Positions 172 through 34,552 of a stretch of 64,000 bases of DNA are shown here, piece by piece. A model generated the notes under the pieces. That model saw only the letters and a list, made by a program, of their open reading frames with translations. It did no database searches and had not been told where the DNA came from. Source of the stretch: a virus; IMG/VR virus record IMGVR_UViG_3300025108_000029, positions 1 through 64,000 of that record; one strand, given 5' to 3'. The translations under genes were made by a program, and so were the position numbers. How positions within the stretch are numbered: the stretch's first letter is position 1; every line of letters starts with the position of its first letter.

Positions 172-473
172 CAAACCCATTCGATTTAGCATGGGCGTTG
201 TTAAAAGGTATTACTCGACAAGACGCTATAGAGTGGATAAAGCACTATCAAAGCCAGCATGAAGAAGATAGTGAAGAGTGGTGGAAGGCAGAAGACCAAA
301 TAGACGGAATGAGAGGAACTTATTATGATAGCGAAGGTTTAAGTCGAAAATGGGGACCACCACCAGCAGAATATGTTGAATATGAACCCAAACCACCTCC
401 CGGTTTTAAACCTCTTACACCCGAACAAGCGAGAAGTATAACCTTAGAACAAATTGACACGAATTATGAGTGA
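168..473 (+). CDS. Hypothetical protein with N-terminal PFDLAWALLK tag
   Basis: 101-aa ORF; N-terminal tag shared with neighbouring ORFs. Confidence 0.8.
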   Translation: MANPFDLAWALLKGITRQDAIEWIKHYQSQHEEDSEEWWKAEDQIDGMRGTYYDSEGLSRKWGPPPAEYVEYEPKPPPGFKPLTPEQARSITLEQIDTNYE

Positions 474-3030: not shown

Positions 3031-3189
3031 ATGAACTTGTTTCTTTTGTTTATTGTAGCATTTTTTTTCGGATTTATTTGCGTGTGGTTGCTGACTACAC
3101 CCGACCCTAATGATACTGTAATTTTTATTGAAGACGAAGAGGCTTTTCATAAAGCGTGTTACGAAGGTATGCGGAGGGGTATTGAATGA
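3031..3189 (+). CDS. Small single-TM membrane protein
   Basis: MNLFLLFIVAFFFGFICVWLL hydrophobic stretch; stop overlaps the next start (ATGA). Confidence 0.6.
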   Translation: MNLFLLFIVAFFFGFICVWLLTTPDPNDTVIFIEDEEAFHKACYEGMRRGIE

Positions 3190-4037
3190 AAGTGTCCGTT
3201 TACGAGGTTGGCCCTCGTGACGGATTACAAGGTTTAGAACAACCCGTCAGCACTGAAACCAAAATACAACTTATCAATGCGTTATACAACGCTGGATTAA
3301 AAAATATCGAAGAAACATCGTTTGCTCATCCTCGATTAGTACCGCAAATGGCAGATGCCGAGGATGTTTACCAACAAGGTTCAGTGCTTGTCATGAACAA
3401 GCGTGGCTACGACAGGGCAATGTCAGTTGGTGCAGAAAAAATTAACATTGTTTTTTCACCTTGCGAGACTTTTAACATGAACAATATGGGTAAAACTCGC
3501 AGTGAAATAGTGTTAATGTACAAAACTTTTATGAAAATACCTAAAGAAAATGTTCGTGTGTACATTAGTATGGCTTTTGGTAGCCCTTACAGTGGTGATG
3601 TAGCACCTATGGTGATGAAAAATTGTTTAAACGATGCAAAAATGTTTGGCGATACGGTAGTATTTGCTGATACAATTGGCACTGGTAGTCGTAACGAAGT
3701 AGCATTATGGGCTGAAATGGCTATTATGAAGGGATTAAAACCAGCATTACACTTACATCACAAAGGAAACGAAGAAAAAGCACTGTCTTTAGTCAAAATG
3801 GGACTAATAAGCGGAATAAAAGAGTTTGATTCAAGCATTGGTGGGCTTGGTGGTTGCCCTTTTACGGAAAATAGTGGCAGTAATTTATCCACTGAAACAC
3901 TGGTGCGCCATCTCAACGCATGGGGATTTGACTGTGGGCTTGTTGAAGACGACTTACAGGTAGCGTCAGTCATTGCGACAAGACTTTTATTGGCAGAAAA
4001 AGAAGCCAAACTACCGGTATTACTACAATTAAAATAG
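3186..4037 (+). CDS. hmgL: Hydroxymethylglutaryl-CoA lyase (DRE-TIM family), auxiliary metabolic gene
   Basis: EVGPRDGLQ, ETSFAHPRLVPQMAD, ADTIG, HLH metal motif, GLGGCPF with catalytic Cys, NLSTE. Confidence 0.9.
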   Translation: MKVSVYEVGPRDGLQGLEQPVSTETKIQLINALYNAGLKNIEETSFAHPRLVPQMADAEDVYQQGSVLVMNKRGYDRAMSVGAEKINIVFSPCETFNMNNMGKTRSEIVLMYKTFMKIPKENVRVYISMAFGSPYSGDVAPMVMKNCLNDAKMFGDTVVFADTIGTGSRNEVALWAEMAIMKGLKPALHLHHKGNEEKALSLVKMGLISGIKEFDSSIGGLGGCPFTENSGSNLSTETLVRHLNAWGFDCGLVEDDLQVASVIATRLLLAEKEAKLPVLLQLK

Positions 4038-4095
4038 GTATTAAAAGAAGTGCGATTGTAGCGTCTGCCCAATATCTCCAATTCATTTTAACCCC

Positions 4096-5568
4096 TCAAT
4101 ACCTCAAAGTGGGCATTACAAAGGGTTTCGGTTCAATATTTTCATCATCCTTGTAATTTTGAGCCATCAATTCGATGGTGCGAAGCATATGTGGGCTAAT
4201 ATTGTTAATCATTGTACCATTTTCGGTAGGATTCATTTGGTGATTGCGGTCAAGTAGGTTAATGTCTTGAGTAAACTCTTCGGGTAGTGGCTCTTGGTGG
4301 TGGACTTCTACACCTGCCTTAAACAACATTTGCCACGCTAAGTCCATTGGTTGACTTTTTATGTAACCGCTGGCTCTTGCATCATCTTCACTTACTAATT
4401 GACCGTTTACAAAATACATTCCCGGTCCTGCTGGTGTAACTTGAACCGGTTGATTTGCTAATTCTTGTCGTTTAGCCTCTTCTTCTTGTCGAGCCTGTTC
4501 TTTTTGTCGAGCCGCCTCTTCTTGTTTTTGTTTTTTCTCGTACTCTTTTTGCGCTCTATAATCTACTCCTTGTTGGAGTAAGTCTTCATTTTCAAACTTA
4601 TCTGCTAATTCATTTTCATATTTTGATGAAAAACTATCAACAAGTTCGTCTTCGGAGGCAAAGGCTCTTTTGCTTGGCAAATGTTCACCTACAATACCTC
4701 TACTTCGTACTTGAACAGGGCGTACATTCATTGGATTACTTACTTCTCCAATATCAGCATGATTAAGTAAATCAAAATTGTGTGTTTTACCTTCTTTATC
4801 TACTGGGTCTGCATGAAGAGTTATTCCTTTATGAGATAAATTACCGGGTTGCATTACGGCAGAAAGACGCTTTGCTTCATTATTTGTCATTTGATTAGGT
4901 CTTGGGTGTGGTTTATCTGTATAAAGAAAATTAGTAAGCGAGACTTTATCATTTTCTTTATGATTATCAAGTAAACCTTTTTCTTTTAGATGGTCTATTG
5001 CGGCGTGAGATAATTGAAACGGTGTAATAGCGTGTTTTTCACCTTTATGCTCAAAGAGTTGATTATCTATATATCGGGCTTCATCCAATTTATTTTTATT
5101 CCTACCCATTCTTTCATCCCAATGTTCAGTTGGTTTACCGTTTACTTTTTTTGCAGACTCTATCAATTTTTTAACAAAATTATCATATTCCGGTGCTGAA
5201 AATCTACCTGCTAATTTCCAAGCCTTTGTAACAGCCGCCGCTTCTTTGGCTTTATCGGCTACATTTTGTGCGGCTTCAAGGTTATTTTGTTTCATTTGTT
5301 GTTGATTTTGAGTGTGTTGGGCTGATGCTTGTTGAGCCATATCTCCGACTGTTTTTTTAGGGTCGGTAACGCCAATTTTTTTTGCACCTTGCAGGAGTTT
5401 GCTACCTAAGCCAGTAGCGGCGGTAGTACCTGCCGCTGTAGTAGCCGCACCAGTAACCCCTGTTGCACCAGCGGCAACAGTTCCAGTTCCGCCTAATACC
5501 GGTGCGGCGGCGGCGGCAACGAAGGGTGCGGCTTGTACGGCTTTCCGAACAGCAATTGGCCTCACCAT
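4096..5568 (-). CDS. Modular hypothetical protein with internal tag (KSQPMDLAWQMLFKA)
   Basis: 490-aa ORF; A/G/T-rich N-terminus, coiled coil, internal tag at 4315-4365. Confidence 0.8.
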   Translation of the reverse strand: MVRPIAVRKAVQAAPFVAAAAAPVLGGTGTVAAGATGVTGAATTAAGTTAATGLGSKLLQGAKKIGVTDPKKTVGDMAQQASAQHTQNQQQMKQNNLEAAQNVADKAKEAAAVTKAWKLAGRFSAPEYDNFVKKLIESAKKVNGKPTEHWDERMGRNKNKLDEARYIDNQLFEHKGEKHAITPFQLSHAAIDHLKEKGLLDNHKENDKVSLTNFLYTDKPHPRPNQMTNNEAKRLSAVMQPGNLSHKGITLHADPVDKEGKTHNFDLLNHADIGEVSNPMNVRPVQVRSRGIVGEHLPSKRAFASEDELVDSFSSKYENELADKFENEDLLQQGVDYRAQKEYEKKQKQEEAARQKEQARQEEEAKRQELANQPVQVTPAGPGMYFVNGQLVSEDDARASGYIKSQPMDLAWQMLFKAGVEVHHQEPLPEEFTQDINLLDRNHQMNPTENGTMINNISPHMLRTIELMAQNYKDDENIEPKPFVMPTLRY

Positions 5569-5629
5569 GTTTAGCGCATGAAGCGAGGACTCTAAATGCT
5601 ATCGCTTATTACCACCGATTGGTGAGAGT

Positions 5630-7747
5630 GTGAGAAAGGTTGCTGTGCGTAAACCTAATCATGTTCTAAAGGCAGTTTATGACGCTCGACCGTTAAGAAG
5701 GGACCGTGAGCAGTACCTTGATGATTCATTGTTTCGTGAAAGCCCGTTTCACTCATTAAGACTACAAAATGAAAGACACCGATTACCAACTCTTGGTAGA
5801 GCGTTAAACAACTTAGAAAATAGGACTTTTGCAGATGAAACAAGATACTTGAGGGACCATGAATATTTACCTTTAACTGATTTAGCAGGTAATTCACTTA
5901 GCGGGCAGTTTGTATTCCCTGCTCATGCTTATTCTTTTAATCCAAATCCTCGTACAATAGGCGGTAGTACAGCACCCGACCTTCCTATGAACTTAAAAAC
6001 AGGATTACCTTTAAACTTATTTGGTTTTAAAGGTAGAATGCCGCAACGATACGGAAAAAATATTCAAGAAGAAGGTGTCATTTATGGCGATTTAAACGAC
6101 GAGGATGTTGTGCAACTAAATACAAACCCTTTACGACACGATGACATTAGAGAAGCAGGTCGAGCATTATTACCTACACATCACGGTAGATTATCGGGTA
6201 GAGCAAGAGCAGATAAAATAGAAGAAGCCATGAGAGTACTTATGGAGGCTGAAATACCACCTGCGTTGTATAATCAAGAAATGCTGGATATAGAAAATAT
6301 TCACAATGCTGATAATCCAAACCTTACTACTTCGGGTTACATGGGTTCATATTTACAACCATTTAGACAATGGGAACAGGGTGAAGGCTACCGTGTAAGA
6401 GATTTAGACCGACAAGAAGAAATGGGTTTAATTTCCCCCGAACAAAGAATGTTGATGGATGATAATTTAGGCCAAATAGACCCATCGGGTACTTTTTACC
6501 GTAGTGAACCAATGGATATTACTATGCGGTTGCTTAAAACCGCTTACGGTTCTCGTGATGAACCTCCTACCATGACCCGGCTTATGCAGGGTAATTATGC
6601 AGGAAAACCGGGTGCATGTACCCTTTGTGGTAACTCACCAGTAGTAGCAGGGGCGCAATTCCGTAATCCACTGGGTAGTATAAATTACACACACCATTTA
6701 TGTGAGCCGTGTGCAGACCAGTATGGCATCATGCATTCGGCTGATATGTACAAAGGCGAACCAATGGACCTCGCCATGCAGTTGTTGAAAAAATTACCTC
6801 CGCATTGGAGTCGAGATTTTGACACTATAGAACAATTGCGTGACCCTAAACACGGCATACAATCAATGCGAGCCATGTCACTTGAAGACGCTCGAAATAT
6901 TGAACAAATACCATTAAGAAGCGGTAATATAGAGTTTGAAAGAGACTTAACAGACCCCGATATTACAGGTGCAAAAAGTATAGTTCCGGGTATCGCTGGT
7001 GGTAACATATACGATGAAAGTTTAGTAAGAGAAGGTGGTGGTTTTGTTTACAGACCTCATTTAGCCGCTCTTGCCCCACTTTCGCAATACACGGATATGC
7101 CATCAAGTCCAAGACCAAATGTATTGATAGCCTCAACAGAAAAACCGGAGTTTAGAGCAAGTAAAAATGAAGGTAGAATACAAACAGAAGGTTTCATGCC
7201 AGTAGGAATGGACCCAAATCAAGCGTATTTGTTAAGTGACCCTACAAAACCGTTTACTCGTGAAGACTTACTACAACAGGCAAGAATAAAACAAGCCGGT
7301 GGAGTACCATATCATGCAAGAAGCGACATAGAAATAGACCCATTCGACGGATATGCTACGGCTTCACGAGCATTAGAAACTTTACCAAAAGAAAATATTG
7401 AAAACCCTTTTACTCAAATGGGAACATGGGGTCAGCCAAGAGTAGTCGCTGGTCCACAAGATTCCGATGTCTTTTACCGTAGCGAACTAATGGACATTGC
7501 TATGCGACTACTCAAAGAGCGTGTAAGCCCCGAAGCCAAGCGGCATAAGTTGGAGTACGACAAAAAATACGAGTCCAGCCCGGAGAGAGTCAAGTATCGA
7601 GAGGAACTTAACCGTGAACGCCGACGACGACACATCATGGGGCAGGGTGGACCGGACATGAGCCACACCAGCCAGCACACTATTGTTCCCGAAGACCCCC
7701 ATACCAACCGAGCAAGGCATTTCAAGGACAAAGGTACACTTCTTTGA
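5630..7747 (+). CDS. Four-module polyprotein-like ORF with three tag linkers
   Basis: Linkers FYRSEPMDITMRLLK, MYKGEPMDLAMQLLK and FYRSELMDIAMRLLK; one CxxC...CxxC module; basic HNH-like last module. Confidence 0.8.
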   Translation: MRKVAVRKPNHVLKAVYDARPLRRDREQYLDDSLFRESPFHSLRLQNERHRLPTLGRALNNLENRTFADETRYLRDHEYLPLTDLAGNSLSGQFVFPAHAYSFNPNPRTIGGSTAPDLPMNLKTGLPLNLFGFKGRMPQRYGKNIQEEGVIYGDLNDEDVVQLNTNPLRHDDIREAGRALLPTHHGRLSGRARADKIEEAMRVLMEAEIPPALYNQEMLDIENIHNADNPNLTTSGYMGSYLQPFRQWEQGEGYRVRDLDRQEEMGLISPEQRMLMDDNLGQIDPSGTFYRSEPMDITMRLLKTAYGSRDEPPTMTRLMQGNYAGKPGACTLCGNSPVVAGAQFRNPLGSINYTHHLCEPCADQYGIMHSADMYKGEPMDLAMQLLKKLPPHWSRDFDTIEQLRDPKHGIQSMRAMSLEDARNIEQIPLRSGNIEFERDLTDPDITGAKSIVPGIAGGNIYDESLVREGGGFVYRPHLAALAPLSQYTDMPSSPRPNVLIASTEKPEFRASKNEGRIQTEGFMPVGMDPNQAYLLSDPTKPFTREDLLQQARIKQAGGVPYHARSDIEIDPFDGYATASRALETLPKENIENPFTQMGTWGQPRVVAGPQDSDVFYRSELMDIAMRLLKERVSPEAKRHKLEYDKKYESSPERVKYREELNRERRRRHIMGQGGPDMSHTSQHTIVPEDPHTNRARHFKDKGTLL

Positions 7748-7749
7748 AG

Positions 7750-7856
7750 GTCATAATAGTCATATTAGTCATTATAGTAGTCATTATTTTGACCCTACAC
7801 TAAATATATAGTAATACTACTCATTATTTTGAATGATATTATGACTATAATGACTA
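7750..7856. repeat. TAGTCAT direct/inverted repeat array in an AT-rich intergenic region
   Basis: TAGTCAT at 7757, 7766 and 7778; TA(G/C)TCATTATTTTGA at 7778 and 7818; inverted ATGACTA at 7841 and 7850. Confidence 0.8.
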
Positions 7857-7860
7857 CTAA

Positions 7861-7876
7861 AGCGAAAGAGTTATAT
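7861..7876 (+). promoter_or_regulatory. BRE/TATA-like promoter of the GTPase operon
   Basis: Purine-rich GCGAAAGAG followed by TTATAT, 19-24 nt upstream of ATG 7895. Confidence 0.4.
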
Positions 7877-7894
7877 TGGCTTTTCAATTGACCT

Positions 7895-8449
7895 ATGGTG
7901 AGCAACATGCAAGGTAACAGGCAAGACTCGGATGCAGAAATACGACTGATGGGGCTAATTTTGGCTCAATCAGCCTTAGTTGGACTGGCAATTGGCGTAT
8001 TTGACGCTGAACTATGGTTAATTAGCGATACTCCCATGTTAAACGGATTTACATACGCAATGGCGGCATTTTTTGTTCAAGGTATCGCATATTACTTCTT
8101 TAAAATGTTCTTTGAACAGAATATGCAAGAAAGAGTACGAGCAACATCTATTGAAAAGAATAGACAAGACCGATACCGCCAAATGCAACTAAGTTTTGAT
8201 AATCGGCGTAATGATATGGAAATGCGTATGCAAGAAGCGCAACTTGAGCAAGAATTACGATGGATGGAGCAAAACCCCGGTAAAATGCCTCCAAGTTGGG
8301 GTGTTCCCGGTGGCTCTCAATCTATAATTTCTAAGTACGATACTGATAATTTTAATCCCGGCATACCAAACCATGAAGCCGAGGTCAAACAACCAATTAA
8401 CCTTGGAATTAAAGAAGAAGACGAACCTAAAGAGCCAAAAAAGAAATGA
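7895..8449 (+). CDS. Two-TM membrane protein with cytoplasmic coiled coil
   Basis: Hydrophobic segments LMGLILAQSALVGLAIGVF and FTYAMAAFFVQGIAYYFF, then an E/Q/R/M-rich helix. Confidence 0.8.
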   Translation: MVSNMQGNRQDSDAEIRLMGLILAQSALVGLAIGVFDAELWLISDTPMLNGFTYAMAAFFVQGIAYYFFKMFFEQNMQERVRATSIEKNRQDRYRQMQLSFDNRRNDMEMRMQEAQLEQELRWMEQNPGKMPPSWGVPGGSQSIISKYDTDNFNPGIPNHEAEVKQPINLGIKEEDEPKEPKKK

Positions 8450-8458
8450 GGTGATTAA

Positions 8459-8719
8459 ATGGGTCGTATATTCAAAACACCCACAGATGATTCTACCGAG
8501 GCTACACTTCGTGCCATGCACACTCAAAACACCCTTGACACATATTACGAAAAAGGAGTAGGTTGGATAAGAACAGTGATACTGTGTTTTGTTACCGCTT
8601 TGGCTATTAGTTTTTGGGAATTATCTACCGGTGAGTCTTTTTGGGACAATACTGTAGAGTGGGTGTGGAATAAAGTGCAAAACTTTGCAGATTGGATATG
8701 GGGTAAAGTAGATGGTTGA
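8459..8719 (+). CDS. Small membrane protein with Trp-rich amphipathic C-terminus
   Basis: GAGGTG RBS; TM WIRTVILCFVTALAISFW; tail FWDNTVEWVWNKVQNFADWIW. Confidence 0.75.
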   Translation: MGRIFKTPTDDSTEATLRAMHTQNTLDTYYEKGVGWIRTVILCFVTALAISFWELSTGESFWDNTVEWVWNKVQNFADWIWGKVDG

Positions 8720-9428
8720 CCCTGCTGGTTCTGCTCTTGTTGGTGCGGCTGTATTCGGTCAATCCTTGTACAACTCTTGGCGACCTCGCCGTGTAGGTGT
8801 GTATGGTGCGGCAATGGTGGGTAAGACAACTCTTGACCGTTACATGACAACTCCGGGTGAAATGGAAGAAATAGGTGATGATGAAAGAACTTCACACATG
8901 AAAATACTTGGTCGTTACCTAATGCCAAAACCTACCCGTAAGCGTGTATCATGGAAAGGGCAAAAGCGAGTTGTTTATTCAGCCGATATAGGTGGACAAG
9001 AACGATTTTGGAATCTGTGGATTGATGATATGGTATCGAGACAAGTCGAGGCTGTCGTGTTTGTATTTGATGACCGAGCAATAAAAGGTGGAGAAGAAGC
9101 ATTACAACAAATAGCGGGCTTCAAATATCTCGTGGATTGTTTAGTTAATCGCTCTTATCGTTATCGAACTCTCAAAAGTCGGTGGAAGGGTAAAAAGTAC
9201 ACACCTCGATTAGTTATGCTTGTAGCGAATAAAGCAGACCGCTTTTTTGATGAAAATGCCGCAATGCTGTGGCAACAAAACCGAATTGGTGAACATAAAA
9301 TATTCAATGCGTTTCGAGATGACCTTATACGGTTACAAAAAGCAGGAATACCTACACGCCGTTCTTTTATGGCGACTCGTATAGGATGGAATGTTGAAGA
9401 AACGATGATTGACTTACTGACAACTTGA
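8712..9428 (+). CDS. Ras-superfamily small GTPase (Arf/Rab/Roc-like)
   Basis: G1 GAAMVGKTT, G3 DIGGQERF, G4 VANKAD, G5-like MATRIGWNVEE. Confidence 0.88.
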   Translation: MVDPAGSALVGAAVFGQSLYNSWRPRRVGVYGAAMVGKTTLDRYMTTPGEMEEIGDDERTSHMKILGRYLMPKPTRKRVSWKGQKRVVYSADIGGQERFWNLWIDDMVSRQVEAVVFVFDDRAIKGGEEALQQIAGFKYLVDCLVNRSYRYRTLKSRWKGKKYTPRLVMLVANKADRFFDENAAMLWQQNRIGEHKIFNAFRDDLIRLQKAGIPTRRSFMATRIGWNVEETMIDLLTT

Positions 9429-9437
9429 GGGAATATA

Positions 9438-9617
9438 ATGATAAGAAAAACAACAACTGTTATCGCTGTGAATAAAAAAAGTAAATGCGTGAGAACCGTT
9501 ATACCAAATGTAATGGCAGAATTATTACAACTTTCAGCAGGAGATAAAATTAAATGGGAACTATGCGGTAGCACAGAACAAGGATTTTTTTTAAAAGCGG
9601 TAAAAGGTGAAGAGTAA
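9438..9617 (+). CDS. AbrB/MazE/SpoVT-like DNA-binding protein, 59 aa (not in ORF track)
   Basis: MIRKTTTVIAVNKKSKCVRTVIPNVMAELLQLSAGDKIKWEL matches the IP-x5-L-x-L-x-x-GD-x-I-x-W swapped-hairpin pattern; stop overlaps the next ATG. Confidence 0.7.
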   Translation: MIRKTTTVIAVNKKSKCVRTVIPNVMAELLQLSAGDKIKWELCGSTEQGFFLKAVKGEE

Positions 9618-11761: not shown

Positions 11762-12442
11762 ATGGAGGGCGGTGAGCGAGTAGTGAAACGCTCGTGCCGT
11801 CTGTGTGTTCATGAAGACCGTGATGAATTAGAAGAACAACTTCTACAAGGTCATATCACACCAAAAGAAATGGATAAAAACATGAGTTGGCGAGCCAATA
11901 CCGCTGACCGTCACTATCGAAACCATATGGGTGAATACCACTTAGCGGCCAATCCTTCTTGTCCTGTATGTGCTTCACCTAATCGTGCTGATTACGAGTT
12001 TGAGTTTTTTAATAACGGTGGGTCAACAGACGCTATCGCTACTGCACTTGAAATACCCGAAAGTGTAGTGTACAACCATATGAAAAACCACTTTCAACCG
12101 TTGGTGCAAAAAACAGCGGCTCTTGAAGTAGCACTTACGGCTGGTCGTGAAATAGAACTACTTCGCTCAAACGCTCAAAAATTAAACCATAAACTTAGCG
12201 AATTACTTGACGAGGGTAGTGTTCATGAGGATGGATTTGTAAGAGATGCTGTTATATTACACAAGGAAGTACGGGAAACTGTCAAAGACTTACTACGCTT
12301 CGAGGACCAATGGGGGCCGCAAAGCGACGGGCAACAAGTCAATCAAACAATCAATGTATTGCAGATTGAATTGAGTAAAGAAAGCCCGGAAACTTGGACT
12401 CGTATTAAGAAACAACTTGAAGAAAACATGGGGGTGGAATGA
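11762..12442 (+). CDS. Tandem Zn-finger/HTH protein with coiled coil; terminase small subunit candidate
   Basis: Two repeats (CRLC...RHYRNH and CPVC...NHMKNH), helical oligomerisation-like region, C-terminal NQTINVLQI strand; first gene of the packaging operon. Confidence 0.55.
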   Translation: MEGGERVVKRSCRLCVHEDRDELEEQLLQGHITPKEMDKNMSWRANTADRHYRNHMGEYHLAANPSCPVCASPNRADYEFEFFNNGGSTDAIATALEIPESVVYNHMKNHFQPLVQKTAALEVALTAGREIELLRSNAQKLNHKLSELLDEGSVHEDGFVRDAVILHKEVRETVKDLLRFEDQWGPQSDGQQVNQTINVLQIELSKESPETWTRIKKQLEENMGVE

Positions 12443-13731
12443 TGGTTATGGGAAGAGGTTCGGACACACGAATGTATGCACCCCGTAGTGAATCATCTCA
12501 AATGTATTCGTCTGCTAATGAAGACGAAAGTAAGTACAACCCTACTTCGCCCGAAGACAATGAAAAGCGGGCAGAAGCAAAAAAACTCAAAGAAGAAGAG
12601 GCTAAGAAAAAAGCCAAAGACATCAAACACATTAAAATCAAACCAAATCAAGGTTTAGGTGCAGGACCGGGATTAGAAACAGAACCCGGTCTTGATGACG
12701 GCAACAAGCGTGATGATGAGCGTGAGATAGGTCTTCAAGGTGGACCGGCTGGTAGTCGTGGACATTTACTTGATTTAGCCACAGGTGCAAAAACAGGCAC
12801 AGGTTCAGCAATGGGTACGGGTAATTCAGCCGTAAGAACAGGTGAACCAATGGCTGATGCTTGGAGTTCGCTACTCAAGCGTGAAACTCGTGGAACTATT
12901 GAAGGTCGCCGTCGCCGTGAAAAGCGAAGAGAGTTCCGCCCTTCAACTGGACAATTCAAAAGACCACCCGGCGGTCAATCCCCTGTTGGTGCAACCATGC
13001 GCCGTTTCCGAGCGCACATGCGTGGTATCAAGGGTGGTAAGAAAACCGGATTGATGAAACCCCACTTGGCTGTTGAAATGAGCCACCGTGGTATTGCTAC
13101 CAAGCAACCGATGAGTAAAGACCCACAGAAGTATCGTCAATACATGGGGCAACAAGAAGCAAAGAAAATACTTGGTAATGTCCGAACAACCTATTCTCCA
13201 CACGCCCGACACAGCGCAAGGTCATTCACTGCTGGACCAACTGGCGGTGGCCGCTTAACTGGACTACTACCGGGTCAATCCGGCCAAATGCGACAACCGG
13301 CTTTGCAAAGACTACGCCGACCTCGTATGCCACGGATGCCACGGATGCCAACCCCGCAGATGCCATCTATGCCGCAGATGCCCCCGCCAATGAGCAGTGT
13401 TCCAAGTATGCCAGCACCATCGTCTTCCATGATGATGAGTGACGAGCGCACTCAAAGTGATTTACTCAAAGCAAATCGTCATGCTAATCGAACTGAAATG
13501 CTTGCACTAATGCGTATGTTAATTCAAGCACAGCGAGCAAAAGCGAGCATGAAAAAATCAAAACCTAATTTTTATGATGGCAATGTACCTCAACATGCTT
13601 CACCTGTTCATAACTACGAGGATGAAGAAGAAAAGAATGACGGCCCTACTCAAAACCTTGAAACTAATTCAAGCCGCTTAGGACTCGACCCTGCGGGTTA
13701 TTTATCCGGTAAGCGGGGGCATTCGGGATGA
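12439..13731 (+). CDS. Basic low-complexity protein with internal tag (GEPMADAWSSLLKR)
   Basis: 430 aa; acidic N-part, R/K-rich part after the tag, PRM/PQM repeats. Confidence 0.8.
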   Translation: MMVMGRGSDTRMYAPRSESSQMYSSANEDESKYNPTSPEDNEKRAEAKKLKEEEAKKKAKDIKHIKIKPNQGLGAGPGLETEPGLDDGNKRDDEREIGLQGGPAGSRGHLLDLATGAKTGTGSAMGTGNSAVRTGEPMADAWSSLLKRETRGTIEGRRRREKRREFRPSTGQFKRPPGGQSPVGATMRRFRAHMRGIKGGKKTGLMKPHLAVEMSHRGIATKQPMSKDPQKYRQYMGQQEAKKILGNVRTTYSPHARHSARSFTAGPTGGGRLTGLLPGQSGQMRQPALQRLRRPRMPRMPRMPTPQMPSMPQMPPPMSSVPSMPAPSSSMMMSDERTQSDLLKANRHANRTEMLALMRMLIQAQRAKASMKKSKPNFYDGNVPQHASPVHNYEDEEEKNDGPTQNLETNSSRLGLDPAGYLSGKRGHSG

Positions 13732-18178: not shown

Positions 18179-18520
18179 ATGAATGGGGATTTTAAAATGA
18201 AAGAAGACGATAAAAAGAAAAAGAAAGGTATGGTTGTTGTAATTGCACTTGGTGGTAAGCCGCCTAAGTCACCGGAACACACCGCTGACCCCGATGAAAA
18301 GAAAAAAATGGATGATGCTTGGCGATTTTTGAAAGCATATTACACCGAAGAACAAGTGGCTGAAATGGAAAATATGTCACCCGAAGACGCATGGAATCGT
18401 AAAAATGAAATAACTATGGATAGGAACGATAAATGCATGGGTTGTAATAAAACACTTAATTTAGGCGACCTTGAATACGGTGCTTGTTTAGAATGTAAAA
18501 CATCTACAAGCGGTAGGTGA
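18179..18520 (+). CDS. Small protein with internal tag (KMDDAWRFLKA) and C-terminal Zn ribbon
   Basis: CMGC...CLEC; K-rich N-terminus. Confidence 0.75.
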   Translation: MNGDFKMKEDDKKKKKGMVVVIALGGKPPKSPEHTADPDEKKKMDDAWRFLKAYYTEEQVAEMENMSPEDAWNRKNEITMDRNDKCMGCNKTLNLGDLEYGACLECKTSTSGR

Positions 18521-26700: not shown

Positions 26701-29555
26701 GGTTACAACGCCGTTCAAGTGAATCTGCTCTTGGTAAACAACCTACACGCTGGAAAACCGATGCTGGTTTTATTGACAAAGTGGCTAAAAATAGTCGTAA
26801 CGCTGTCCTTGAAGCCGCAAAAAAATTATTACCTATAGTTATGGAACATGACCCAAATCATTTTGACATTAACGACCCGGAGAAGTTTATGGCGAATCAT
26901 AACCGTTTAATGTATGACGCTGAACGGTGGCTTGCAAATGCAGACCATAGTGTACACGGTATCAAAGCACCTGTTTACAGAACATCGGATGAAAGTAAAA
27001 CAGTTACTTCAAAGCAAAAAGGCTTTCATCGTGATGTAATGAGTCACATGCTCGACAACAGTTTTGAATTAAACGGTAACATGACACCCGATGAAGTCTT
27101 AGAAGGTATGGGATTAGAAGGTAAGACAAGTCAACAAAAAGCACGATTAAGAGAACATGTACAAAAAATAATTGATGAGTCAAATGTAAGAGAAGTTCCG
27201 TTGCGTGTTGCGACTGTCGGACAGTTAATGACGAGTGGTAATTTTGATGACGAGTTTTCACTTCATCGTATTCACGCTGATGAACAATTCGCTCAAGACT
27301 ATCAAGACGGTGGAATACACACTGCTATTGATAACGCTCAATCGAGAACTAAAAACTGGAAAGCACATCCTATTCATGGTATAGTAGGTACTGTCGGACA
27401 GCATAGATTTGACTCATCGCAATATGGTAGTAATATGTCAAACAACGGTTTATCCTACTATCCAGCCGGTGGTAAACTCGATGTGCATAACAGATTAGGT
27501 GCTGGTAAAGGTGGTAAAAAGCCTTACACGAGAAGAACAAAAAATTACCTTGATAGTATTGTAAGTTTAGATATTGATGCTGTAAATGCTGATAATATGA
27601 CACCTACGCAAGAAATTGTGAGAACGCTTGGTATTAACGGTGAACCAGTACCTATTGGTGGGGTTAATCCTTCTTCATTCGGAATTATGCCTACACACAC
27701 TGGTGCTGATGTAGTCCACTCTTCTGCTGTCCCTCAACAGTCATCATTTGGTATCGAGTTTGATTCTCAAGGACAACCATCGGTCGGTACTTACACTGAA
27801 CCTCAATTATACCATCCTACTTGGCAAGGTGCATTAGAGGAACTCCACGGCACAGATATGACAAATCATTTGTTGGAAACATTACCACCACATCAAAATC
27901 CTACTCCACCTTTTATGGATTATGACAAAGAAACTTTTGATATATTCGGAGAAAACAACCCTACTGCTCTTAACTTGAGTGAAATGAGTGAATATATTAC
28001 TTCTCTTTTAAATCCCGATGTGCTTTTGACAAAAGCCGATGATGCTGAATGGTGTCCTCCGGTAAGACCGATGCACCGCATATTCGATTTAAGTGACCTT
28101 GAACACCTAAGAGGGTTTAGCGGTTCATGGGTAGTCAGTAAGTGGTACGATGGTAAGCGAGTTATTATCGTACAAAACGATAATGAAATCACTACTTATG
28201 ATGAAAATGGGCGCAAGGTTGGATTAAAGAAAGCATTCAAAGAAAGCCTCGCTGAATTAAACGACAATAACTTTGTCATTGATGGTATTGTAGGTGAAGA
28301 AGACTTGAACATTATTGATATTATCAACTATGATGATACCAATGTTGCTGAAATGTTAATGCATGAACGCATGAAAGTTCTAAGAGGGCAGTTCGATAGC
28401 CATGAAAATGTCATCATTCCCGGCCCGCATGATACAAAAATGACTGATGATGAGGGTCTTGAAGACGCTGTTAAAATCCTACAAGAAGACCACGGTATAG
28501 TTTTGTTACGAGATAATAAATCCACATACATGAAAGGAGAGCGTCGTCATCCTAAGTGGTTGTTATTGCGTGAAAGTCGTGATTTTAACTTTATCATTCT
28601 TGACCGTCGAGGTAAAGGACCATACACATATCAACTTGGTGCAGGGCCGATTCTTGACGGTGAAGCATTAGGTAATCGTGCCGTCACATACAAGAACAAT
28701 TTCTACATGGATGTAGGTACAGCCCACAGACAACAAAGAACCTTCAAAGTTGGCGATATAGTAAGAGCAACTGTAACAGGAGTTACAAAAAAGCGTAGAA
28801 AAAATCGAGATGTGTTCAATGTACAAGTGCGTGAAATAGAAAGTGAAGGTGAAGGTGAAGGTGCGGCCAGTGCTGAATCATTAGACCTTATGACAAAATC
28901 GTTTGCACCTTTGCTTATACCCCATGATATAGAATACAATGATGGTGTATTACAAGTTATACTCAAAGGTGTAGATACAGTATCGTATCAAGTTACACAT
29001 ATGGATGACAACTGGTATCTACATGACCCTTCTTCGGCTTTAGGTGATTTGACTAAATCGAATTATTCTCTCACTCTTGCTGAAAGCCTTCATCCGTTTT
29101 GGCATTCAGTAGCACCGTTGATGCTTGACGGTCATCTCGTAAAAACAGAAATGGATGAAAAGAAAGTGCCAAGTCGTAAAAGACAAGAAGAACAATCAGC
29201 CGGAGTTCTTGATGCTAAAGACGATAACCGCCTTCTTAAACCATCAACTAAGAAGGCTCTTGATGTAATTAGTCGTGCTTTAGACAGACTCGCTAAAGAA
29301 AAACTTACTTGGACAGGGCCGAAAGGTTTGGGTATTGACATGGCTACACCGGTAGAATCACCAAGTGGTCCTACGAGATTAACAGAAGAAAGTAACTTAC
29401 CCGACTATGATGGTAAAGTAAGACCGGATGAAAAGGATGGTGTTGATTCGGATGATAAAAAGAAAAAACCCATTACGCATGTTGAAATGAAGACTGATGC
29501 AGACGAGTCTATCGTTTTAGATGATGAAGACGGTACTCCTACTCTTTCAGTGTGA
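23709..29555 (+). CDS. 1948-aa head-module protein with C-terminal degenerate ATP-dependent DNA ligase fold
   Basis: SKWYDGKR, FVIDG, NIIDII, YMKGERRHPKW and OB-like YMDVGT...VGDIV in ~28030-28900; His-rich unknown N-region. Confidence 0.8.
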   Translation: MVAEQFNIAKDELLLSLADGNDLAFSAAEYIIAWESLNKAPTDTLSKSLKYTAELIQKEEDKAAKVEKVKSYKEGPGFLLAHHHTHGEQTNHVWKDSLSGADNVRESHAVWPRYVPTSSHPYREHNYPFHHTNHPLLRMDSSKGNAGYVEVLRSHIFGGHSKEEAQMEKEFQKYLETKKSPLVHGYNGKKILGSLRHHKSNYSHQHDLYERDYQRWNKLNSDLKDQYLADGRSAEETENRLRVDHFNQRAKQWQSGGYVVDENGDNHAVGLGQEGYHLGLEWLNPEERTAVMRHLHEKGVDNHNEIKLPNGEFIPTARLTWNNLMRRTPEKNWALRASGHFGPNGHLRQETLEGDFRQGDNRFSQGVIGEAAHTYEIGGQPISHYIAEAIHNRFGIELPDGDNEGVGKPFDILPRLGLHSKPVQDSYSLKDLRAGTFKHYKKSKGMDPKHTRMPMEDVLFLAGYDPKTRKPLLNHPIYGEMDGPIIPLHDLEQMESEAKSHGSLSSLAKEMRTDLAYLQSPHGPHPDEEKPKFWRFDKGGNHTIGPAKFWSKPFAQVGGADMTLATYNENVHSVAHNEDELTEEEKIEQAYANIASNEPVDITGGAQNEDTAHIPTPFQQKKKDMSSPSTSGLFEVNEQHHGQLHPNPINMALGMHFGPEKSREIGQVEKQKGGATKFVRFQDGDILQNLFSPANAFTKTSSGDKHNWTLHQSTYNPQLLHSLRTMSNDEKKKLKVDTIKQTLHSHNPLKTSQPESTYGAHTSDAPIGEKARANHWRKTMLGQTLDPYKPQKNSVQPLKDLMSGNIPVSFGVDHEDYMDFLGWGVKQPNFNNVKNYITSPDSAKALRILTAIAKETGSNSPNRILNNINDLTEDNPMYADIKHRMEKEGSYLNDGDIDELKGWLNSFEVQLRQKKGKEAEAKNQRSKTSIQATEDTTFTTRTIDSALKFGGMLPAMQKEKELSERLNVITEMIQYMDSPEQVQSLRRELDEGQVELNRLQRRSSESALGKQPTRWKTDAGFIDKVAKNSRNAVLEAAKKLLPIVMEHDPNHFDINDPEKFMANHNRLMYDAERWLANADHSVHGIKAPVYRTSDESKTVTSKQKGFHRDVMSHMLDNSFELNGNMTPDEVLEGMGLEGKTSQQKARLREHVQKIIDESNVREVPLRVATVGQLMTSGNFDDEFSLHRIHADEQFAQDYQDGGIHTAIDNAQSRTKNWKAHPIHGIVGTVGQHRFDSSQYGSNMSNNGLSYYPAGGKLDVHNRLGAGKGGKKPYTRRTKNYLDSIVSLDIDAVNADNMTPTQEIVRTLGINGEPVPIGGVNPSSFGIMPTHTGADVVHSSAVPQQSSFGIEFDSQGQPSVGTYTEPQLYHPTWQGALEELHGTDMTNHLLETLPPHQNPTPPFMDYDKETFDIFGENNPTALNLSEMSEYITSLLNPDVLLTKADDAEWCPPVRPMHRIFDLSDLEHLRGFSGSWVVSKWYDGKRVIIVQNDNEITTYDENGRKVGLKKAFKESLAELNDNNFVIDGIVGEEDLNIIDIINYDDTNVAEMLMHERMKVLRGQFDSHENVIIPGPHDTKMTDDEGLEDAVKILQEDHGIVLLRDNKSTYMKGERRHPKWLLLRESRDFNFIILDRRGKGPYTYQLGAGPILDGEALGNRAVTYKNNFYMDVGTAHRQQRTFKVGDIVRATVTGVTKKRRKNRDVFNVQVREIESEGEGEGAASAESLDLMTKSFAPLLIPHDIEYNDGVLQVILKGVDTVSYQVTHMDDNWYLHDPSSALGDLTKSNYSLTLAESLHPFWHSVAPLMLDGHLVKTEMDEKKVPSRKRQEEQSAGVLDAKDDNRLLKPSTKKALDVISRALDRLAKEKLTWTGPKGLGIDMATPVESPSGPTRLTEESNLPDYDGKVRPDEKDGVDSDDKKKKPITHVEMKTDADESIVLDDEDGTPTLSV

Positions 29556-29595
29556 AAGAAACATTCTATATACCATGACAATGAATCGGAGGGTA

Positions 29596-30987
29596 ATGTT
29601 GTCCTTAAAGCGACCCACCTCCGGCATTGCTCTCATTAAGGGCAGTTCCGATATGGTTATCGCTGGCTACGCATCAGTTGAACTGGTGGACAAGCAAGGC
29701 GACCTTATTACTCGTTCAGCACTAAAGGATGCATTTGGCGGATTCATGAAGAGTGAGAAGTTCCGTAATGTTCAACTCGCTCACTCAAATATTCAAGTTG
29801 GAGAAGTTATTGACTCCTATGTAGATTCAAATGGTCGGATGTGGAAGTCCGAAGTTGATGATGCCGGTATGTTTGTCGTTGTTTCACTTCGCAACGATAT
29901 TGAAAAGGCTCGTGAAGTGGCCGCAGAAATCCGTAAAGGTAATCTGCAAGGATTTTCCATCGGTGGACAAGCATTCAAGAGAGTGCGAAAATCGGATGGG
30001 GAACATGGAGACTACCAAGAAATTAGTAAAATGGAACTGCACGAAATAACGATATGTGAAAAAGGGATTAACCCCGAAGCGCAGTTTCGTATTTTAAAGG
30101 AGGACACCCACATGACAACAGAAAATGATTTGAATAATGTAATGAGCAGACTTGAAGCACGACTTGACGCTATGGAAAAAGGCGAAATGCCTCCCGGCCT
30201 TAAGGAACATATGAACGATAAAAAAGACGATTCCGACGATGAAAAGAAGGAAAACCCATTCGCCGCAAAAAAAGACGAAGAAAAGGATGACGAGGATATG
30301 AAAGACGACAAAATGTATGCAAAGAGCGAGTACAGTGATGTAATTACTGCTGAATACCTAAACTGGATGGAGGACACTCTCAAATCCGCTGGTGTTGACA
30401 CTATGCAAGCACGAACACACTTCGATAATTTGGAAAAGGCGCAACTTGGCGGCTTCGACAACCCCGATGCTGTTGATGGTGCTGACTACTTCGCCGGACA
30501 AGTCCGAGGTCGAGGTCAAGAAAACGGTTCACCTTCAACCGGTGCAATCTCCGCAATCTCTTCAACTGGTGGTAAAACACCATCCGGCGCACTTGGGCCT
30601 GTTTCAATGGCTAAGGGTTACATTAACCCAAGCAATGTTTCAGCATCCGATGTTGAAGCCGCTTACGAAGTTTACAAAGCCGCCGCAATGGAACAAGGAT
30701 TCCGTGGCGACCTTGAATCTCAATTCGCATCTCGCTTTGCAGAAGAACAAAAAATTGCAAAGCATGAAGCAGAAAAAGCCGAGTTCGACGCTCGTGCGCC
30801 TCTTAACGAAGTCATGAAGTCAATTAACGCACTAAGTGAGCGTATTGATAACATTGGTATTCAAGGAACATCAATTCAAAAGTCGGCTTCTTCATCTAAT
30901 GTTGAAGTCCCATCCACACAAGACTTGAGTAACATGTCTTGGGATGAAGTACACAATCTCGCCGGTTCGGTCATTCGAGGGGCTTGA
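29596..30987 (+). CDS. Prohead protease (HK97-type) fused to scaffold
   Basis: IAGYASVELVDKQGD, QLAH, GFSIGG, LHEITICEKGINPEA; GGAGG RBS before ATG 29596; immediately upstream of the MCP. Confidence 0.9.
   Translation: MLSLKRPTSGIALIKGSSDMVIAGYASVELVDKQGDLITRSALKDAFGGFMKSEKFRNVQLAHSNIQVGEVIDSYVDSNGRMWKSEVDDAGMFVVVSLRNDIEKAREVAAEIRKGNLQGFSIGGQAFKRVRKSDGEHGDYQEISKMELHEITICEKGINPEAQFRILKEDTHMTTENDLNNVMSRLEARLDAMEKGEMPPGLKEHMNDKKDDSDDEKKENPFAAKKDEEKDDEDMKDDKMYAKSEYSDVITAEYLNWMEDTLKSAGVDTMQARTHFDNLEKAQLGGFDNPDAVDGADYFAGQVRGRGQENGSPSTGAISAISSTGGKTPSGALGPVSMAKGYINPSNVSASDVEAAYEVYKAAAMEQGFRGDLESQFASRFAEEQKIAKHEAEKAEFDARAPLNEVMKSINALSERIDNIGIQGTSIQKSASSSNVEVPSTQDLSNMSWDEVHNLAGSVIRGA
30112..30987 (+). 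CDS. Nested in-frame scaffold protein (internal start)
   Basis: AAGGAGG at 30097-30103, then in-frame ATG 30112 right after the protease domain; coiled-coil/acidic product. Confidence 0.6.
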   Translation: MTTENDLNNVMSRLEARLDAMEKGEMPPGLKEHMNDKKDDSDDEKKENPFAAKKDEEKDDEDMKDDKMYAKSEYSDVITAEYLNWMEDTLKSAGVDTMQARTHFDNLEKAQLGGFDNPDAVDGADYFAGQVRGRGQENGSPSTGAISAISSTGGKTPSGALGPVSMAKGYINPSNVSASDVEAAYEVYKAAAMEQGFRGDLESQFASRFAEEQKIAKHEAEKAEFDARAPLNEVMKSINALSERIDNIGIQGTSIQKSASSSNVEVPSTQDLSNMSWDEVHNLAGSVIRGA

Positions 30988-30994
30988 AAATAAA

Positions 30995-31025
30995 AAAAAA
31001 ATAATGGAGAGTGAAATATATGGCA
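30995..31025 (+). promoter_or_regulatory. Conserved 5' leader, copy 1 (MCP)
   Basis: AAAAAAATAATGGAGAGTGAAATATATGGCA, nearly identical to 32132-32162. Confidence 0.7.
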
Positions 31026-32120
31026 CGAGACTACATACGAAGCGTAACTGACATGGAACGGTACTTTTACGGTGCTGGTAATGCAATGGGATATTCCTAC
31101 AGCGGTAGCGAATTGCTCAAGGCTGACAGCCCAATGATGAGTACTACAGCAGGAACTTACCAAGCGATTTATGGTCGCAAGGTTTGGTCGCAATTGAACC
31201 AAGAGTTCAATGCATTCTCAATTCTACCAAAGCGACCTTGGGAACGCAGTGGATGGCGAGTCATCACTGAACGACCTTCGTTCAGCGTTGGTGGCGGTGT
31301 TGCAGAAAACGCAACTCTACCGGACACTACCAAGCCTACCTTCCAACACATTGCCGCAAAGCCAAAGACGATTGTTCACACATTCGACATGAGCGAAACC
31401 GCAATGTTCCTTGCTGACAAGGATGACGGACTGGGTGACATTCGCTCAATCCTCAAAGAAGAAATGGGTAAGCACCACGCCGAGCATATCAATAAAATGT
31501 TGCTCGTTGACAAGGCTACCGTTGCTGGAAACGATTTCGAGTCTCTTGACCGTATCGCTACTGGCCTCGTTGCTGGTTCAGCAGAAGACATCTACTCGAT
31601 TGACCGAAGTGAAAACTCTTGGTCTGTTGCAGAAGAAGACTCCAACGGTGGTACTGACAGAACTCTTTCTCTCGACCACTTGGACAGTATTTTCCAAAAG
31701 TGTTGGACTCGTGGTGGTAATCCAAAGGTTATCCTCACTGGATATGACACTTTGATGCGCCTTCAACAACTTCTACAATCGCAACAGCGTTTCATGGAAG
31801 AAAAGCGTATCACCCCTACCTACAATGGTGTTAAGGGTGTACCGGGAATTGAAGCAGGATTTATCGTTGCTACTTACAACGGTGTTCCTATCATCCCATC
31901 TAAGGATGTTCAAGCAGACACATTGAGCCGTATGTATTTCCTCGACACGGATTACCTCTACTTCTCTACTGCTATCCCAACGCAATACTTTGAGTCCGGT
32001 ATCGAAACCGGCGACCCATTCGCAATCAACCGTCTTGGACAAGAAGGAATGTATCGAACTATGGGAGAACTATGGACTACTTTCTTCGGAGGACACGCTT
32101 CAATTCGTGACCTAAAGTGA
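31020..32120 (+). CDS. Major capsid protein (HK97 fold)
   Basis: Follows protease/scaffold; ~366 aa; GGGVAENATLP, KPKTIVHTF, YNGVPIIPS; predicted leader ending LLK34|A. Confidence 0.9.
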   Translation: MARDYIRSVTDMERYFYGAGNAMGYSYSGSELLKADSPMMSTTAGTYQAIYGRKVWSQLNQEFNAFSILPKRPWERSGWRVITERPSFSVGGGVAENATLPDTTKPTFQHIAAKPKTIVHTFDMSETAMFLADKDDGLGDIRSILKEEMGKHHAEHINKMLLVDKATVAGNDFESLDRIATGLVAGSAEDIYSIDRSENSWSVAEEDSNGGTDRTLSLDHLDSIFQKCWTRGGNPKVILTGYDTLMRLQQLLQSQQRFMEEKRITPTYNGVKGVPGIEAGFIVATYNGVPIIPSKDVQADTLSRMYFLDTDYLYFSTAIPTQYFESGIETGDPFAINRLGQEGMYRTMGELWTTFFGGHASIRDLK

Positions 32121-33864: not shown

Positions 33865-33868
33865 AAGG

Positions 33869-34552
33869 ATGAAAGTACTAATTAAAGCCGTAATGCCTCA
33901 CCGACAAAAAGTTCTTACTCAAGACGGCCAAGAAATGCGCCTTCAACAATGGGCGAACAAGCAAGCCGCTTCTGCTCTCCGTGGTGCTGGCGGCGATGCT
34001 CAAGGTGAACAATTCTCACAGTCTCGTGATATGCTCATGAGAGATGCTGTAGAGAACCCGGAGAAGCATGGACTAAAGTTTATGGGCGAGAGGCTACCCT
34101 TTGAGGGGCAAAACCTCCAAGAATCGCTTAGTGAACCTACTTTTGACAACGAGGCTGATAAAGAAATAGCGGATTTTCACCATGAAGAAGAATTACGCAC
34201 TCATGGTAAGGATGAAAGCGAAATAGAAAGGGATGCTCGTTATCCGGGTGGTGTTAAATTACCCGGAGAAGAATTGCCTAATTTGTTTGACAGTGAAGGT
34301 AAACTCCGTGATGGTATGCCGCCCGAAGAAGAAGAGTTCGACCCCGATGCCGAGGCTGAACACATGCGTCGTATCATGAACTCTCGTGATGTTCCTATGC
34401 GTGATGCTTGGAGTATATTGAAAAATGACGAGAAATGCCCGATTCATGGTGATAAATTAGAAATGACAGGCGACCATGCTCTTGATAATGAGACAGGACC
34501 ATCGTTCTGTCCTACTTGTGCTAACATGACAGATAAAGAACGGCGAATGTGA
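33869..34552 (+). CDS. Acidic protein with internal tag (VPMRDAWSILKN) and C-terminal Zn finger
   Basis: Start MKVLIKA; CPIH...CPTC after the tag. Confidence 0.75.
   Translation: MKVLIKAVMPHRQKVLTQDGQEMRLQQWANKQAASALRGAGGDAQGEQFSQSRDMLMRDAVENPEKHGLKFMGERLPFEGQNLQESLSEPTFDNEADKEIADFHHEEELRTHGKDESEIERDARYPGGVKLPGEELPNLFDSEGKLRDGMPPEEEEFDPDAEAEHMRRIMNSRDVPMRDAWSILKNDEKCPIHGDKLEMTGDHALDNETGPSFCPTCANMTDKERRM

Follow-up and report, generated by a model that had tools for sequence, protein, structure and literature searches.

Polymorphic toxins carry a short conserved peptide (VENN in CdiA, PxxxxDPxGL in Rhs proteins) that marks the boundary of an exchangeable cassette, and the Rhs motif is also a cleavage site. 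The cargo-loading peptides of encapsulins are usually C-terminal and extended, and they occur with neither multi-module strings nor a protease. In bacteriophage T4, the capsid targeting sequence (CTS) of the proteins IPI-III and Alt ends in L/I-x-E and is removed by the prohead protease gp21. The T4 internal proteins are a diverse set that shares only this CTS, which encapsidates them into the scaffolding core (PMC3012670). Polyvalent proteins combine 2-15 unrelated, often enzymatic, conflict-type domains in one polypeptide; for those of phages, packaging and delivery together with the DNA are predicted, and some are proteolytically processed (Iyer et al. 2017, PMC5512222). Here, we analysed a 705-amino-acid (aa) open reading frame (ORF) in a 64-kb stretch of viral DNA (the window), positions 1 to 64,000 of a 77-kb IMG/VR contig (IMGVR_UViG_3300025108_000029; completeness estimate ~72%). 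The ORF consists of four unrelated modules joined by three copies of a short peptide, the tag, which also labels other proteins of this genome and at whose edges whole modules are exchanged among relatives.

The system would work like the T4 CTS combined with a polyvalent protein, and its module boundaries recall pre-toxin motifs. As in T4, a peptide of ~10 residues marks accessory or anti-defence proteins that are otherwise unrelated and evolve fast, stands at the N-terminus of single-module genes, and is accompanied by an encoded prohead protease. However, the tag has no sequence likeness to the CTS, ends in L-L-K, and recurs internally as a joint up to seven times; the protease is of the HK97/S78 type rather than the gp21 type, the host is archaeal, and loading and cutting here are putative. 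With polyvalent proteins the system shares at least two unrelated globular domains in one viral polypeptide and variable architectures. In contrast, PMC5512222 describes no conserved inter-domain tag ('linker' has 0 occurrences) and almost wholly bacterial elements, and most modules here match no known conflict domain (modules M1-M3 have no Pfam match). Polymorphic toxins resemble the system in that recombination swaps variable modules at a short, conserved stretch encoding a peptide. Their delivery part is constant and N-terminal and bears a single variable toxin at the C-terminus, whereas here the constant part, module cluster C0, is C-terminal, several variable modules stand in series, each of them tagged, and there are no immunity genes. 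Like the encapsulin peptides, the tag may direct diverse cargo into an HK97-fold shell, but it differs from them in sequence, position and form, and it comes with module strings and a protease. The use of one peptide as both N-terminal label and repeated in-frame joint sets this system apart from the T4 CTS, polyvalent proteins and polymorphic toxins, as do its C-terminal constant module and its occurrence in an archaeal virus with an HK97-type protease.

A 705-aa ORF of four tagged modules

The first-pass annotation, made from the window alone, had placed three 15-aa joints in this ORF at the positions listed for tags 1-3 in Table 1, with four unrelated modules between them. All three joints were found at exactly these positions, and the modules fell into four different similarity clusters. 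The pairwise identities of the joints are 13/15, 9/15 and 9/15, whereas the best 15-mer pair in 300 protein shuffles had a mean of 6.7 and a maximum of 8 identical residues. A degenerate 24-nucleotide (nt) DNA pattern of the joint core had three matches in the window, against an expectation of 0.00 derived from 100 shuffles. For comparison with metagenomes, we used assembled contigs, not raw reads, of four marine metagenomes from four studies. Independent contigs span 5641-6810 and 6679-8301 with zero differences, and the long ORF is therefore no assembly chimera. The whole ORF had no tblastn match among 50,697 phage records, and Pfam gave no match for it or for the divergent neighbouring ORF. 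Intein-type or other self-splicing and 2A-like skipping were rejected as explanations of the junctions, which lack Cys/Ser/Asn or NPGP signatures.

The 15-aa linker had been described as a feature of this one ORF. It does occur there in three copies, but the peptide is a genome-wide tag that also heads single-module proteins. At least 12 ORFs carry it, with at least 14 copies in total. Every copy lies in the structural/late arm (0-63 kb), and a tag scan of the replication arm detected no copies. Eight copies of the window genome are N-terminal or near-N-terminal, so that unrelated proteins have this short peptide in common. A profile-free scan of 1.84 billion representative proteins yielded 394 relatives (metagenomic protein clusters); the 150 best of these range from 82 to 1354 aa and carry 0-7 tags per protein. 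The exact coding variant of the tag of ORF 5630-7747 was present in 34 stretches of 33 IMG/VR contigs, of which many measure 80-108 kb. Of the 159 tags in the regions flanking related loci, 35 stand at the N-terminus of a gene of their own, whose start Met precedes the Pro by 1-2 residues.

The consensus of 165 distinct tags, which come from 81 loci, is [S/G]-E-P-M-[D/E]-[I/L]-A-[W/M/F]-[R/Q]-L-L-K, with the Pro conserved in 162/165 and the final Lys in 150/165. The proposal that a basic residue at either end would allow complete excision of the linker fails in the family as a whole: the terminal Lys is common, but R or K occupies position -3 in only 40/165 tags. Where modules of clusters C1, C2 and C3 stand first, they carry a leader (MRKV[AFL][VI][RK][KQ], MKPVLVKK or M[GS]RIL[IV]LK[KE]) in the place where internal copies have the tag, and some C0 modules have an internal ...TIVK-SVLVLK head instead. 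All three types of head (tags, leaders and VLVLK heads) end in two aliphatic residues followed by Lys (h-h-K). Searches of the literature with motif words returned only optical character recognition noise in three unrelated papers, and a keyword search of two magrovirus papers found neither such a motif nor a polyprotein.

We predicted the structure of the whole protein with AlphaFold2 (AF2), using a shallow alignment of 33 rows (predicted template modelling score 0.42). The tags are predicted to be short helices (Table 1) within inter-domain segments below 50 in the predicted local distance difference test (pLDDT), with the domains folding separately, which indicates that the joints are not integral parts of one fold; structure prediction had been proposed as a check on precisely this point. 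The helical hydrophobic moment of the tags is 0.50-0.73, compared with a protein-wide 95th percentile of 0.61. The whole-protein model retrieved nothing by Foldseek, and its maximum VIA-align Z of 4.7 fell on a helical hairpin of the low-confidence module M1.

Neither M1 nor M3 had a Pfam match or a usable match in the ESM Atlas. The cluster of M1, C2, has 20 members among the 150 best matches and is the first module in 18/20. M2, a zinc-ribbon-like module of cluster C3, is modelled with three strands (pLDDT 73-87); C3 stands first in some relatives and after C1 in others. For M3, the sole whole-domain row in the structural comparison was the cholix-toxin ADP-ribosyltransferase (3q9o; 139 residues aligned, root-mean-square deviation 5.1), at a noise-level Z of 3.8, and the ADP-ribosyltransferase-like fold is thus a weak lead from the model. 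The residues E520-G521 of M3, inside a Q-T-E motif, are nearly invariant.

The last module, M4, belongs to the C0 cluster, which is the last module in 111/113 occurrences. M4 contains a DMSH...NRARH motif, and an AF2 model of the tag with C0 (96 aa, 45 sequences; pLDDT 81.7) shows three helices followed by a beta-hairpin and a helix (E67-70, E76-79, H81-90). Residues D67, S69, H70, E79, H82, N84 and H88 are invariant among the 45 sequences. Topology and residue pattern are those of an HNH finger, and we call the module HNH-like by motif and topology only. C0 had no Pfam match at E <= 0.1, no PDB profile match at E <= 10 and no Foldseek match in the PDB; VIA-align of the tag with C0 reached a best Z of 4.1, and the HNH entries 5h0o (Z 3.6) and 4h9d (Z 3.5) were tied with unrelated rows and are at noise level. 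C0 is homologous to the small basic proteins of marine cyanophages in phrog_6437 (S-CRES1 gp96, S-CBS2 gp045), with 47-54% identity over query residues 22-88 and a common GGPD[VM]SH...NRAR motif. The cyanophage proteins are stand-alone, ~105 aa long and without a tag, whereas C0 here ends a multi-module string.

The last module had looked GC-rich by eye, and counting bore this out: M4 has a GC content of 0.54 and a third-position GC content (GC3) of 0.59, against a GC3 of 0.26 in M1 and 0.24 in M3, and only 1.5% of the 228-nt windows of the genome reach its GC content. Candidate causes of this contrast are a recent sweep, selection at the DNA or RNA level, and foreign origin. In two metagenomes, the summed contig depth over C0 is 5-40x that of the modules upstream, indicating that many co-occurring genotypes share C0 and differ in cargo.

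Module exchange at tag edges

Cassette exchange of modules at the tag edges is close to certain. The first-pass annotation had suggested comparing homologous loci, in which the modules should occur in other orders or as stand-alone tagged genes, with breakpoints at the linkers; a single full-length architecture kept by all homologues would have spoken against it. We cut the 150 best relatives at their tags and obtained 400 modules in 145 clusters. Their architectures vary and include C3-C2-C0, C2-C1-C11-C3-C0, C3-C1-C24-C7-C0, C1-C1-C7-C0, C1-C0, C2-C0 and C3-C0, as well as the single-module forms C2 alone, C0 alone and tag plus C0 alone. Other orders, other combinations and stand-alone tagged genes thus all occur, and the breakpoints lie at the linkers. 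The head genes stay conserved across relatives whereas the cargo ORF is re-assorted: protease homologues are 76-96% identical, and capsid protein and protease are 76-96% identical across >100 clusters.

Two indels of entire modules, both with tags at their edges, distinguish the closest relative (L002) from the window. The orthologue in L002 is 93% identical and 867 aa long; at the site of tag 3, where the window has this tag only, it carries two tags with a further module of 147 residues between them. For the window ORF starting at 12439, the orthologue (98% identical) likewise has a second tag and, between the two, a Zn-ribbon module that the window lacks. In its nucleotide sequence, the window copy first follows the left parental tag and changes to the right one within GAR-CCA-ATG-G. 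The extra module of the closest relative (L002:5129-5569) matched the S-adenosylmethionine lyase family PF23780 with E 1.4e-3 and 19 bits, below the cut-off; if true, it would be a T3-SAMase-like anti-restriction module on a tagged cassette.

Using positions 4000-9500 of the window as a blastn query against 79 related loci, we observed homology in ~50 loci that extends collinearly from C0 across the membrane-protein and GTPase genes downstream. The homology begins at 7471-7489 in the loci with a tag there (~30 of the ~50), and at 7515-7529 in those with a VLVLK-type head. Upstream of tag 3, only the closest relative matches. On the other side lies the divergent neighbour, which is of the same build: a leader, MVRPIAVRK (5542-5568), a variable body, the tag YIKSQPMDLAWQMLFK (4318-4365) and a conserved 73-aa end module. 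Its homology to other genomes stops at 4356-4359, at the tag edge, and resumes at 5535-5606, in the leader and the divergent promoter region. The homology edges at the neighbour's tag and at tag 3 indicate a variable island bounded by two tags in inverted orientation.

Breakpoints of the same kind were seen in the metagenome contigs. Loose ends occur at 6506, 6539, 6754-6758 and 6789-6790, with a further breakpoint at 4308; after 6539, two different continuations were found in three runs. One contig joint links 6792 back to 6499, and one variant has 25 nt in place of 4309-5224. One of the continuations after tag 1 (MPQEAKDYAT..., in contigs of two other metagenomes) equals the first ten post-tag residues of a stand-alone tagged gene in another locus (L077:2648-3070), which starts MKPMDIAMRLLK and matches HD_4 (RelA/SpoT-type HD) with E 3.8e-5, below the curated cut-off. 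This gene also carries an AYLHDTVED motif.

The synonymous sites of the tags set them apart from the same ORFs' background. The tags prefer GGC (65% vs 20%), AGC (65% vs 16%), CCA (66% vs 31%), GAC (77% vs 44%), ATC (63% vs 19%), GCT (63% vs 33%), CGG (42% vs 7%), TTG for the first Leu (59% vs 22%) and CTC for the second Leu (44% vs 10%). Furthermore, paralogous tags in one locus agree in codon at 54.6% of the sites that have the same residue, where 35.4% would be expected. The non-background codons and the codon sharing indicate that the tag DNA is homogenised or selected beyond what the peptide needs. A role of the tag coding sequence as a short-homology recombination joint is supported by these sequence comparisons. 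The 36-nt tag core has a median pairwise identity of 64% and a median exact run of 8 nt, and exact runs of at least 20 nt occur in 20/225 tag pairs. Since most pairs offer only microhomology, selection on recombinants could account for the breakpoints without a DNA anchor. The earlier idea that the linker DNA serves as a recombination anchor is therefore borne out only in part: the tag-edge breakpoints and the uniform synonymous sites agree with it, whereas the median run of 8 nt leaves room for the selection alternative.

Many relatives' contigs (L006, L007, L008, L013, L017, L023 and others) end a few kilobases from the locus. This fits assembly breaks at a hypervariable, repeat-jointed cargo region, which tag-jointed variability would explain. 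The locus has an internal position (~63-71 kb) in a complete genome of 107.6 kb that carries terminal repeats.

Candidate roles of the tag

Magroviruses, the viruses of Marine Group II archaea (Poseidoniales), belong to the most abundant viruses in the surface ocean, and a role is known for almost none of their accessory genes. They are defined by a head module, an archaeal-type PolB replication module, a chaperonin (thermosome in group A) and a ~100-kb marine genome (PMC5434244). The 77-kb contig encodes a T4-type large terminase (TerL), a portal (20519-22294), an S78 (HK97-type) prohead protease and an SU10/HK97-type capsid protein; its other arm encodes PolB, a PD-(D/E)XK nuclease, a methylase and a thermosome subunit (E 1e-125). 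Its relatives span 85-108 kb, and the runs that contain window sequence are marine metagenomes. Because this gene content (tailed-virus head module, PolB replication module, thermosome, marine source) matches the magrovirus-defining set, the contig is by gene content magrovirus-like, with the thermosome typical for group A.

By analogy with T4, we favour a reading in which the tag is an address that would load cargo into the head and would be cut by the prohead protease, and we put its probability at about 0.5. Each unrelated module is headed by a conserved amphipathic helix of 11-12 residues, with a leader of the form M-[KR]-x-[VI]-[LA]-[VI]-x-K substituting for it on the first module, and the string is closed by the conserved basic, HNH-like C0. 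Tag and leader would act as a portable address, by which a changing set of accessory or effector proteins enters the procapsid. The HK97-type S78 protease may be the enzyme that processes tagged proteins, separating the modules there by a cut that would likely fall after the h-h-K of tags and leaders. At the DNA level, the partly homogenised tag sequence would provide in-frame short-homology joints, and crossovers at the tags would swap whole modules while the domains stay intact.

The locus has two features of a processed polyprotein, with a conserved joint between all units and an encoded S78 protease. Tags and leaders end alike, the protease domain ends with an invariant F-R-I-L-K-E-D, and the capsid protein has an invariant S-E-L-L-K-A-D at residues 33-39. 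These motifs are weak hints of a Lys-ending cleavage site. A complex prediction of the protease-scaffold protein and the major capsid protein with tag 1, the Zn module and tag 2 scored 0.00, which speaks neither for nor against binding.

Several points weigh against this address-and-cut reading. The h-h-K motifs of the capsid protein and the protease are short and could be chance matches, and with at least 77% identity among all homologues, their invariance carries no information. A cleavage motif of the major capsid protein sought in more distant relatives was likewise uninformative, the identity of this protein being at least 80% in every relative checked. The cargo gene lies 9 kb upstream of the terminase, beside a gene for an HMG-CoA-lyase-like protein and a membrane-protein/GTPase cassette, and thus outside the head block. 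A cut after Glu would place Pro at the P1' position, which many serine proteases disfavour, and a cut after LLK would leave the internal tags on the C-terminus of the preceding module. Tag 3, finally, is without the near-invariant Pro. The tag was also considered as a copy of the C-terminal tail of the scaffold; this is not evident here, since the scaffold region ends ...SWDEVHNLAGSVIRGA.

One portable peptide on dozens of unrelated and rapidly exchanged modules would supply a sequence rule by which the variable accessory or effector repertoire of these uncultured viruses can be listed from metagenomes, and a testable model of cargo loading and release in an archaeal tailed virus. It would also be a natural case in which domains are shuffled at defined in-frame joints, and might be of use as a tool to load foreign proteins into HK97-type capsids.

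The position of the cargo gene outside the head block and beside the membrane-protein/GTPase cassette keeps another docking partner in play. The tag could be a docking helix for the membrane, for the downstream membrane-protein/Arf-like-GTPase cassette or for the thermosome, gathering the modules in the infected cell. In favour of this are the shortness and strong amphipathicity of the helix, the collinearity of C0 with the membrane-protein and GTPase genes downstream in essentially all relatives, and the group II chaperonin that the virus encodes. Tagged genes, however, also lie inside the head/tail block and beside the gene for a 6115-aa protein, a 10-residue helix is short for membrane binding, and the leaders that replace the tag are beta-strand-like rather than amphipathic helices. 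We consider this role unlikely, but it is the strongest of the alternatives.

Slightly less probable is a neutral, well-tolerated domain-boundary cap that serves for recombination only and has no part in targeting or cleavage; it would persist because exchange between its copies preserves reading frames and domains. It would account for the location of every breakpoint at tag edges and for the partial homogenisation of synonymous sites. It would leave unexplained that eleven residues are conserved across proteins that otherwise share nothing, and that single-module genes are tagged though they need no joint (35 N-terminal in related loci; 8 here); moreover, the nucleotide identity of most copies is too low for efficient homologous recombination. 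In the opposite direction, the tag DNA might be a dedicated recombination site at which a virus nuclease (the HNH-like C0 or the PD-(D/E)XK enzyme) stimulates exchange, while the peptide addresses and releases the modules. We regard this as doubtful. A DNA-level role is not needed, as selection of in-frame, domain-preserving recombinants could explain breakpoints at the tag edges, a point that also bears on the DNA-level part of the address-and-cut reading. If true, a dedicated site would mean that the virus actively shuffles an injected effector repertoire, comparable to integron cassettes or diversity-generating systems.

The tag could also encode an in-frame ribosome-binding site and start codon (G-E-P-M as GGT GAA CCA ATG), giving nested translation of the modules from one mRNA. 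The start geometry of this genome is GGTGA-N4-start, GAGGTGA/GGTGA-N4-6-ATG is common among its genes, and the tag of ORF 12439 reads exactly GGT GAA CCA ATG. Nevertheless, the Shine-Dalgarno-forming Gly codon GGT is depleted in the 165 tags (27% vs 47% background), and this avoidance argues against internal translation starts. The tags of ORF 5630-7747 read AGTGAACCA, GGCGAACCA and AGCGAACTA before the ATG (AGTGA, GGCGA, AGCGA), and in stand-alone tagged genes the start is a Met located 1-2 residues ahead of the Pro rather than the tag Met. Internal starts are thus highly improbable. Finally, chance, low complexity or an assembly artefact as the source of the repeats can be dismissed in view of the shuffle controls, the independent metagenome contigs with the same architecture and the hundreds of homologues.

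Feature coordinates and neighbouring genes

Table 1. Features of the cargo locus and of related genes in the 64-kb window
Feature	Position	Strand	Basis or comment
Shine-Dalgarno-like GGTGA, 4 nt 5' of the GTG start	5621..5625	+	read from sequence
Tag-jointed cargo ORF, 705 aa, architecture C2-C3-C1-C0	5630..7747	+	GTG start; bridged by independent metagenome contigs
N-terminal leader M-R-K-V-A-V-R-K, in place of a tag on the first module	5630..5653	+	comparison with relatives
Module 1 (M1, cluster C2), aa 9-288, no known family	5654..6493	+	AF2 pLDDT 30-45, poorly predicted
Joint/tag 1, FYRSEPMDITMRLLK	6494..6538	+	predicted helix 294-305
Module 2 (M2, cluster C3), aa 304-372, CxxC...CxxC zinc-ribbon-like	6539..6745	+	CTLC at 330, CEPC at 358
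Joint/tag 2, MYKGEPMDLAMQLLK	6746..6790	+	predicted helix 378-386
Module 3 (M3, cluster C1), aa 388-614, alpha/beta domain	6791..7471	+	confident AF2 fold, pLDDT 71-91 over aa 400-590
Joint/tag 3, FYRSELMDIAMRLLK	7472..7516	+	predicted helix 618-629; Leu replaces the near-invariant Pro
Module 4 (M4, cluster C0), aa 630-705 + stop, basic, HNH-like, three-helix + beta-beta-alpha	7517..7747	+	phrog_6437, E 4e-16
N-terminal tag PFDLAWALLK	177..206	+	tag scan
Further N-terminal or near-N-terminal tags	488-517, 1519-1548, 2489-2518, 18305-18334, 18553-18585, 60590-60619, 60901-60930		tag scan
Divergent 490-aa neighbour of the same build	4096..5568	-	sequence comparison
Tag PMADAWSSLLK within ORF 12439-13731	12847..12879	+	orthologue comparison
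HK97-type (S78) prohead protease fused to a scaffold-like C-terminal region	29521..30987	+	Peptidase_S78, E 1.6e-9
Major capsid protein (SU10/HK97 type)	31011..32120	+	PF17236, E 1.3e-11
Internal tag PMRDAWSILK, then a Cys/His module, ORF 33842-34552 (head/tail block)	34394..34423	+	tag scan

ORF 33842-34552, which holds the internal tag of the head/tail block, probably starts with the leader MKVLIKA at 33869. At the protease N-terminus (29581-29640), MLSLKRPTSGIALIKGS opens most gene calls and consists of two h-h-K units. It resembles the ...TIVK-SVLVLK heads ahead of some C0 modules, and the protease may thus bear a cargo-type leader.

Directly 3' of the cargo ORF (7747-7860), we observed an iteron-like array of four direct AGTCAT-containing repeats followed by the same unit inverted, with arms (7750-7767 and 7837-7854) that are 89% complementary. 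Metagenome contigs carry 45-49-nt deletions in the array (7743/7747 to 7793), which could be a regulator-binding or origin-like element. The HMG-CoA-lyase-like gene (3186-4037; PF00682, E 3.6e-18) adjoins the variable cargo island and has 67-72% nucleotide identity in three other genomes. The structural arm also holds two giant ORFs. The sole match of the 1948-aa ORF (23709-29555) was a sub-threshold one to a DNA ligase (E 0.0075), and the 6115-aa ORF (42213-60560) is directly followed by two small tagged genes (60557-60895 and 60883-61410).

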